From NCBI RefSeq assembly GCF_030013205.1, contig NZ_CP122648.1: a DNA stretch of 64,000 nucleotides. One strand, 5' to 3'. This DNA is from Escherichia coli. GTDB lineage: Bacteria > Pseudomonadota > Gammaproteobacteria > Enterobacterales > Enterobacteriaceae. The position numbers and the translations under genes are program-made. Below the pieces are notes generated by a model. It saw nothing but the letters and a program-made list of their open reading frames with translations, ran no database searches and was not told the origin of the DNA. Shown in pieces: positions 20,968 to 21,297 of the stretch; position 1 is the first letter of the stretch; each line of letters begins with the position of its first letter.

Positions 20968-21087
20968 TAGTCATTATTAATATCCTGCAGATGTGACCTA
21001 ACGACAAGCGTCGCCACGATGACAACTACGGAAAGGATGCCGATAACCCACCACATAACTTACCCGCGCAAAATGAATGGATAAAAA

Positions 21088-21297
21088 TCATCCGCTGATT
21101 GATCCTAATCTTTGCATATTTTTCGAAGATGTTACGTTTAGTGGGGCGAAAAAAGCAATTACAGCAATGCCACCTATCGACGTAAGTCCGAAAAAGCCAG
21201 GCTCAGGTCTGCCGCTAATTGGGTATTGATGGCTTACAAGGACTACAAGTGATGCGATAAGCCTGATCACGTCAAAGCAATTATGTCTGTTATTCAT
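21088..21297 (-). pseudogene. Remnant of an acyltransferase-3 family (O-antigen acetylase-like) gene, N-terminal fragment only
   Basis: 69-aa ORF FDVIRLIASLVVLVSHQYPISGRPEP...FFGL..IGGIAVIAFF resembles acyltransferase_3 N-terminus; full genes are over 300 aa. Confidence 0.35.

Follow-up and report, generated by a model that had tools for sequence, protein, structure and literature searches.

A phiV10-like prophage in the 64,000-nt stretch of E. coli DNA analyzed here (the window) carries, between its tailspike gene and its lysis genes, what is very probably a non-functional 5′ stub of an Sf6-Oac-type gene that was cut by a swap of the neighboring tailspike module. As judged from the sequence, positions 21145–21297 clearly represent the N-terminus of an acyltransferase-3 (AT3) O-antigen acetyltransferase gene of this type, and the fragment is the dead first 15% of the gene, 51 of about 350 codons. 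The downstream catalytic and structural parts have been lost, relatives contain intact genes in the syntenic position, and the adjoining DNA on the far side of the breakpoint is part of a tailspike receptor-binding module also found in P22-like prophages. We infer that a swap of this module is the most economical account of the truncation. The remnant is an ordinary evolutionary scar, a previously unannotated pseudogene fragment. Tailspike-linked O-antigen acetylases and the mosaic exchange of tailspikes are already well known; only this unannotated remnant and the base-level junction are new.

Table 1. Features in and around the tailspike–holin interval (positions in the window)
Feature	Position	Strand	Remarks
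Tailspike gene, 789 aa	18598..20967	+	ORF; PHROG tail and tailspike families
Mobile module: tailspike receptor-binding part and 3′ flank	19269..21153		Common to P22-like prophages
30-codon hydrophobic ORF, single helix, MWWVIGILSVVVIVATLVVRSHLQDINNDY	20964-21056	-	Overlaps tailspike stop codon
Non-AT3 3′ flank of tailspike module	20968..21144		No Oac-profile match, no match to intact relative
69-codon ORF	21088..21297	-	ATG start, TGA stop; AT3 stub and 18 read-through codons in foreign flank
Putative recombination junction	21133..21154		Overlaps oac codons 48-53 and lambdoid sib/attP-arm start in P22-like prophage
AT3 (Sf6 Oac-type) gene stub, codons 1-51	21145..21297	-	Two hydrophobic stretches, TM1 and TM2; R12-X10-H23 motif
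29-bp 5′ leader of lost oac cassette	21298..21326	-	Absent from phiV10-type backbone and P22-like module
Conserved Uetakevirus intergenic region	21327..21453		Right-hand border of variable cassette in phiV10, Tyrion and E. coli prophages
Lysis cassette: two holin-family genes, GH19 endolysin, Rz-like spanin	21454..23251	+	Followed by host yfgI, the prophage end

An Oac-type gene fragment downstream of the tailspike gene

The original prediction had assigned the whole interval 20968–21297 to an acyltransferase gene represented by a 69-aa ORF on the minus strand. Such an ORF is indeed present and starts with ATG (MNNRHNCFDVIRLIASLVVLVSHQYPISGRPEPGFFGLTSIGGIAVIAFFAPLNVTSSKNMQRLGSISG). It lies between the tailspike gene and a holin-family gene (21454–21858, +), where PGAP annotates nothing. 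The assignment holds for the 51 codons at 21145–21297 but not for 20968–21144, which is an unrelated flank: codons 52–69 of the ORF, together with the remaining 120 bp up to the tailspike stop codon, consist of foreign DNA.

The similarity of the stub to the AT3/Sf6 Oac-type family is evident from a subfamily profile and from phmmer, although the general Pfam model Acyl_transf_3 stays below its cutoff with the ORF (E 0.11, 12 bits versus a cutoff of 31; residues 7–50 on profile positions 3–52). Judged by this model alone, the prediction would have come close to refutation; the more specific comparisons decide the matter. Sf6 oac was the sole match of the ORF in a tblastn search of phage genomes (50.8% identity, ORF aa 1–63, E 1e-13), and BLASTP against Sf6 Oac yielded 52% identity over 61 residues (ORF aa 3–63, Oac 2–62, E 3e-20). 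With Sf6 Oac as the query, a set of 120 Oac-like proteins was gathered, and all 120 match the same N-terminal stretch of the ORF. A profile HMM of the Oac subfamily, built from 111 full-length Oac-like proteins and run against all six frames of 20900–21400, scored 69 bits, with ORF residues 1–51 aligned to profile positions 1–51 of 342, and found no other match in these frames. In a phmmer search of the ORF against 1.84 billion representative proteins, 235 matches were obtained at E ≤ 0.001; among the matches listed, nearly all cover the first 50–70 residues of the ORF, and most fall within or close to the N-terminus of the protein concerned. An intact AT3 protein of 351 aa is the best match (88% identity over ORF residues 1–52, E 1.4e-21). 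The protein-family search suggested along with the prediction thus supports, beyond the Pfam result, the AT3 N-terminal motif that had been noticed in the ORF, and, with 51 of 342 profile positions covered, the gene is indeed far too short.

A word-indexed protein search with the 69-aa ORF, using an index of limited sensitivity, returned no match, and neither did a megablast search of 20900–21460 against phage genomes. Searches of 5,426 complete E. coli genomes found neither an intact copy of the gene of the stub (blastn, “distant”) nor, at blastn sensitivity, a phiV10-like prophage with an intact version of this particular oac.

The breakpoint and the lost parts of the acetylase

The DNA of an intact relative (locus L022) can be aligned to window positions 21297–21145 with 78% identity over exactly 153 bp, after which the similarity stops. 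The last similar stretch is GCTTTTTTCGCC, encoding Ala-Phe-Phe-Ala; beyond it, the intact gene continues with ATATCTGGTTACCTG (ISGYL), whereas the window reads CCACTAAACGTAACA. Because the DNA identity to the intact relative ends there, the alignment places the breakpoint directly after Ala51 (GCC), between window positions 21144 and 21145.

The part upstream of the breakpoint includes the R/K-X10-H motif of TM1, with R12 and H23 separated by 10 residues (IRLIASLVVLVSH) and aligned to R11 and H22 of Sf6 Oac. From the FFxISG(Y/F)LI stretch at the end of TM2, FFA alone is retained, and the foreign sequence PLNVTS replaces ISGYLI. The RXXR motif of the first cytoplasmic loop is absent from the ORF. 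The corresponding region, around residues 72–79, lies past the breakpoint and reads KRARRIFP in Sf6 Oac and KRCRRLFP in P0121, the closest relative of the stub. The complete multi-helix membrane domain comprises approximately 320–350 residues, in contrast to the 69 residues of the ORF, 51 of which are derived from the family; about 300 codons and about eight helices are gone. Both R/K-X10-H and RXXR are given as essential in AT3/Oac proteins in a review (PMC9558356). Given that essential AT3 motifs are missing, acetylase activity of the stub is expected to be absent.

A polymorphic serotype-conversion slot

The slot between the tailspike gene and the first holin gene is a recognized, polymorphic serotype-conversion slot, as relatives hold an intact AT3-only gene, an AT3-SGNH gene, or nothing there. 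It is occupied by an intact AT3 gene on the same strand in phiV10 (oac), the TT12B prophage of O157:H7, Tyrion, PAT1, and E. coli SCU-116. The TT12B prophage has a minus-strand gene of the AT3-only type with 100% identity to phiV10 oac, the record of which is annotated with [quoted passage not shown] Intact AT3-SGNH genes reside in the slot in SCU-116, Enterobacter phage Tyrion (gp23), and Salmonella phage PAT1, and in ATCC BAA-2469 the slot is empty. In all E. coli prophage examples, yfgI adjoins the prophage. The comparison with related phages, which had been recommended as a check, therefore revealed intact oac-like genes in the same slot, and phiV10, Tyrion, PAT1, SCU-116, and Sf6 bear out the statement that O-acetylase genes are found next to tailspike genes in temperate podoviruses.

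The stub occupies the position that is characteristic of the Uetakevirus cassette, on the opposite strand, between the tailspike and holin genes, and at the conserved border of the backbone. Homology to the backbone, as seen in phiV10 and in other E. coli prophages integrated at this site, is lost at about 19250 within the tailspike gene and restarts at 21327, 30 bp upstream of the ATG of the stub; the equivalent distance in phiV10 is 32 bp. The stub itself has no detectable similarity to phiV10 Oac (E 0.85), and therefore different AT3 lineages have held the slot.

The two-holin lysis cassette (21454–22153) is present in 513 of the 5,426 complete E. coli genomes. Among these 513 genomes, the start of the upstream homology varies (query positions of about 30, 75, 155, and 226), suggesting that the tailspike–holin slot has several distinct occupants across the species.

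A tailspike module shared with P22-like prophages

The N-terminal part of the tailspike gene, up to about 19250, belongs to the phiV10-type backbone, and from 19269 onward the gene consists of a swapped-in receptor-binding part. Window positions 19269–21153 are 98.3% identical to the tailspike end of a P22-like prophage; W13-16 is one of the genomes in which it occupies the lambda att/bio site. The strain K_EC180, the source of the window, also carries a P22-like prophage at the bio site, and both prophages are present in 10 of the 13 genomes that have the window-type locus. The third arrangement is that of a P22-like prophage at dacD, in which the shared part of the module extends no further than position 21046, and nested shorter versions of the flank exist among prophages. 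Scans of IMG/VR with the stub and with the tailspike tip retrieved only near-identical copies of the same three arrangements.

Two further observations concern the distribution of the tip. The same genome contains, as its second prophage besides the phiV10-like one, this P22-like element (NZ_CP062203.1, 3357746–3358176; loci L002 and L011), the tailspike of which has a receptor-binding part that is 98% identical. Elsewhere the tailspike tip is very rare: among 50,697 phage records, there is just one further match, with 26% identity.

In the bio-site prophage, the shared block runs straight into lambdoid sib/attP-arm DNA, the conserved core of which starts with G(A/G)CAAAAAATTAGCGCAAG. The end of the module, the end of the AT3 homology, and the start of the lambdoid DNA coincide within a microhomology of about 14 bp. 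At 21141–21154, the window reads GTGGGGCGAAAAAA and the P22-like prophage reads GTGTGGC-AAAAAA, that is, 12 of 14 positions are identical; over the last 20 bp of the block (21133–21154) the similarity is patchy.

This arrangement would be explained if a phiV10-like ancestor, equipped with a tailspike tip of its own and a complete Oac-like gene, had recombined with a P22-like phage or prophage. The left crossover, homologous or near-homologous, would have occurred inside the tailspike gene, at about 19251–19269, and the right crossover would have been illegitimate, at the 14-bp microhomology GC(G)AAAAAA, which covers the Ala-Phe-Phe-Ala codons. In place of the old tip and of oac from codon 52 onward, the swap would have brought in the new tip together with its 3′ flank; about 300 oac codons would thereby have been lost, and the 69-codon ORF would be an accident of read-through into the flank. 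The loss of oac would have cost nothing, because the new tailspike would have had no use for an acetylase suited to the previous receptor. The original prediction of a decayed serotype-conversion gene is thus upheld insofar as the stub is the remnant of such a gene, but the decay appears as one sharp recombination junction and not as erosion by point mutations.

The exchange could also have proceeded in the reverse direction, in which case the P22-like junction was made from a window-type donor at the same microhomology, but this would require a second, independent junction at the same spot. The junction was compared with lambdoid sequences with respect to the direction of the exchange, based on a 20-bp stretch that is short and variable. 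The proposal that the junction is the fossil of a cross-genus swap, from a P22-like to a phiV10-like prophage co-resident in one chromosome, in which a mismatched receptor-modifying gene was discarded, has in our view a slightly better than even chance of being correct.

The flank and alternative readings of the ORF

The flank between the tailspike stop codon and the stub has no AT3-family match to the Oac profile in any of its six frames, no similarity to the gene of the intact relative or to the DNA downstream of it, and no Rfam match. Its RNA fold is nothing unusual (z-score 0.37). A promoter/terminator scan found no convincing terminator and no promoter-like site on the minus strand; the sole find was a weak minus-strand hairpin at 21010–21026. 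The 30-codon hydrophobic ORF accompanies the tailspike module in each of the three types of prophage, with only part of it present in the dacD type. It matched no family, and tblastn of the hydrophobic frame of the flank against phages gave no match.

Two candidate resemblances in the flank, both noted by eye only, were rejected: an apparent continuation of Oac, after a frameshift, in the two remaining frames of the minus strand (“SADDFYPFILRG” versus “RSDSFIDFMAKR”) and the likeness of “NIFEK” to the C-terminal “NLVEK” of Oac. They were discarded because the family profile has no match to the flank in any frame and because the break is clean in comparison with the 88% identical relative.

If the truncation were due to an internal deletion, the whole of 20968–21297 would be derived from oac: the N-terminus would have been joined directly to the C-terminal end of this gene, and 20964–21056 would encode the last transmembrane helix. 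The hydrophobic helix encoded on the minus strand of the flank and the weak NIFEK/NLVEK likeness, which is in another frame, would be compatible with such an event. However, the 111-member profile is empty beyond residue 51, tblastn of the 120 family members yields noise-level matches only, the 3′ end and the downstream DNA of the closest intact relative do not match, and the same flank follows the tailspike gene in P22-like prophages that lack the N-terminus of oac. An internal deletion is therefore very improbable.

We regard it as a little less probable still that the 69-aa ORF is expressed as a membrane micro-protein of two helices that has taken on a new role, such as interference with a host AT3 acetylase or superinfection exclusion. 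The ORF is uninterrupted in each of the five sequence variants and in 13 genomes, but this is uninformative because all copies are at least 98.6% identical, and the only two substitutions within the ORF among the five variants (G34C and P52Q) are both nonsynonymous. It adjoins the conserved intergenic region from which the intact AT3 genes in this slot are presumably expressed in relatives, yet the minus strand lacks a promoter-like site, and a weak GGA alone precedes the ATG. Epsilon15 has been proposed to encode uncharacterized inhibitors of O-antigen acetylation (PMC9558356); in the window, the C-terminal 18 residues of the ORF are accidental read-through, and the ORF was not called by PGAP. 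The more specific version, in which a stub peptide made from the conserved divergent intergenic region would act as a micro-protein, such as a dominant-negative partner of a host AT3 acetylase, seems marginally less likely again. Finally, a chance ORF without acyltransferase ancestry, as the subthreshold Pfam match (E 0.11) and the empty word-indexed search might suggest, is hardly conceivable in view of the E value of 1.4e-21 against 1.84 billion proteins with 235 matches at E ≤ 0.001, the 78% DNA identity over exactly codons 1–51 of an intact AT3 gene, and the position syntenic with intact AT3 genes.

The prophage and its host chromosome

The window is 100% identical to the chromosome of the porcine E. 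coli strain K_EC180. The locus was found in 13 of the 5,426 complete E. coli genomes, almost all of which are from porcine ETEC or O139:H1 strains. In PMC4906484, the O139 O-antigen is described as a rhamnose-rich heptasaccharide, in passages that make no statement on its O-acetylation.

The prophage of the window is phiV10-like (genus Uetakevirus) and ends adjoining yfgI. It is defective (window 1–7400), with junctions near 4989–4990 and 5736–5834. At 4990, the window joins phiV10 position 39045 to 6905, so that the terminase and protease genes, a portal-type gene (annotated as a head-tail adaptor), and the 5′ portion of the major head gene are missing. At 5736/5834, there is a jump from phiV10 position 7652 to 10977, by which p12–p14 and most of the tail protein p15 were lost; the ORF at 5795–6391 matches the C-terminal part alone of a tail-protein family. 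Rfam detects a C4 antisense RNA (17048–17135, −, 78.6 bits) and the Hfq-binding RNA isrK (17154–17230, −, 74.7 bits) just upstream of a BRO-N/anti-repressor gene (16307–17044, −), an arrangement that resembles the immI-type anti-repressor control of P1/P7.

Several observations concern the host DNA in the window. Immediately beyond the end of the prophage, an IS1 transposase gene (about 24400–25120) lies inside the host glycine-zipper gene yfgH, both halves of which are marked as pseudogenes by PGAP in K_EC180. In K_EC180, the annotation of the host gene pdeF (about 26170–28420) records a frameshift and an internal stop, which is consistent with the two adjacent ORFs at 26212–27306 and 27340–28416. 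In addition, Rfam detects the Hfq-binding sRNA STnc490 at 57371–57494 (+, 146 bits).

Significance

The locus merits annotation as an oac pseudogene fragment, as PGAP leaves the interval blank, and it should not be counted as a serotype-conversion gene in the prediction of O-antigen modification in porcine O139/ETEC strains. If a tailspike-module swap truncated the gene, the locus is a base-resolved example in which the tailspike tip and the neighboring receptor-modifying gene form one exchangeable cassette in phiV10-like prophages, and in which this cassette can be overwritten by a module from a podovirus of another genus that resides in that chromosome as well. This is of relevance for host-range prediction and for phage therapy against porcine E. 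coli, although the practical value is modest.

Comparison with known systems

The closest relative of the stub that was found is P0121, a 351-aa protein from Logan assembly ERR2909484, with 88% aa and 78% nt identity over codons 1–51. Past the breakpoint, P0121 continues with ISGYLI, RCRRLFP, about eight more helices, and the C-terminal HLVEKKF. In contrast to the stub, it is encoded on a short metagenomic contig of 4 kb, beside another AT3 gene and without a tailspike gene, and both its upstream and its downstream DNA are unrelated to the window.

Sf6 Oac (gene 15, AT3-only) belongs to the same subfamily as the stub, with 52% identity over the first 61 or so residues, and shares with it the R-X10-H motif of TM1 and the GGIAVI..FF stretch of TM2. 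Like the stub, Sf6 oac follows directly after the tailspike gene in convergent orientation. However, Sf6 Oac is complete, with 333 aa, whereas the window retains 51 codons (15%). Furthermore, Sf6 is a P22-like phage in which oac is located between the tailspike gene and int, whereas the window is phiV10-like and the slot extends from the tailspike gene to the lysis genes.

The prophage as a whole resembles phiV10: its replication and virion genes are 97% identical, and its lysis region is 88% identical. The TT12B prophage of O157:H7 is likewise integrated at this site, adjoining yfgI. The phiV10 oac gene (PhiV10p26) resembles the stub in its slot, its strand, and the border of the cassette about 30 bp upstream of the start codon. 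Unlike the stub, the Oac protein of phiV10, an epsilon15-like phage, is intact (338 aa) and represents a different AT3 lineage. Lastly, the AT3-SGNH proteins of Tyrion (gp23), PAT1 (the acyltransferase), and SCU-116 differ from the stub in their length of 624–646 aa and their fused SGNH domain and are not close to it in sequence, but all of them contain PF01757, and their genes have the same position and orientation as the stub.
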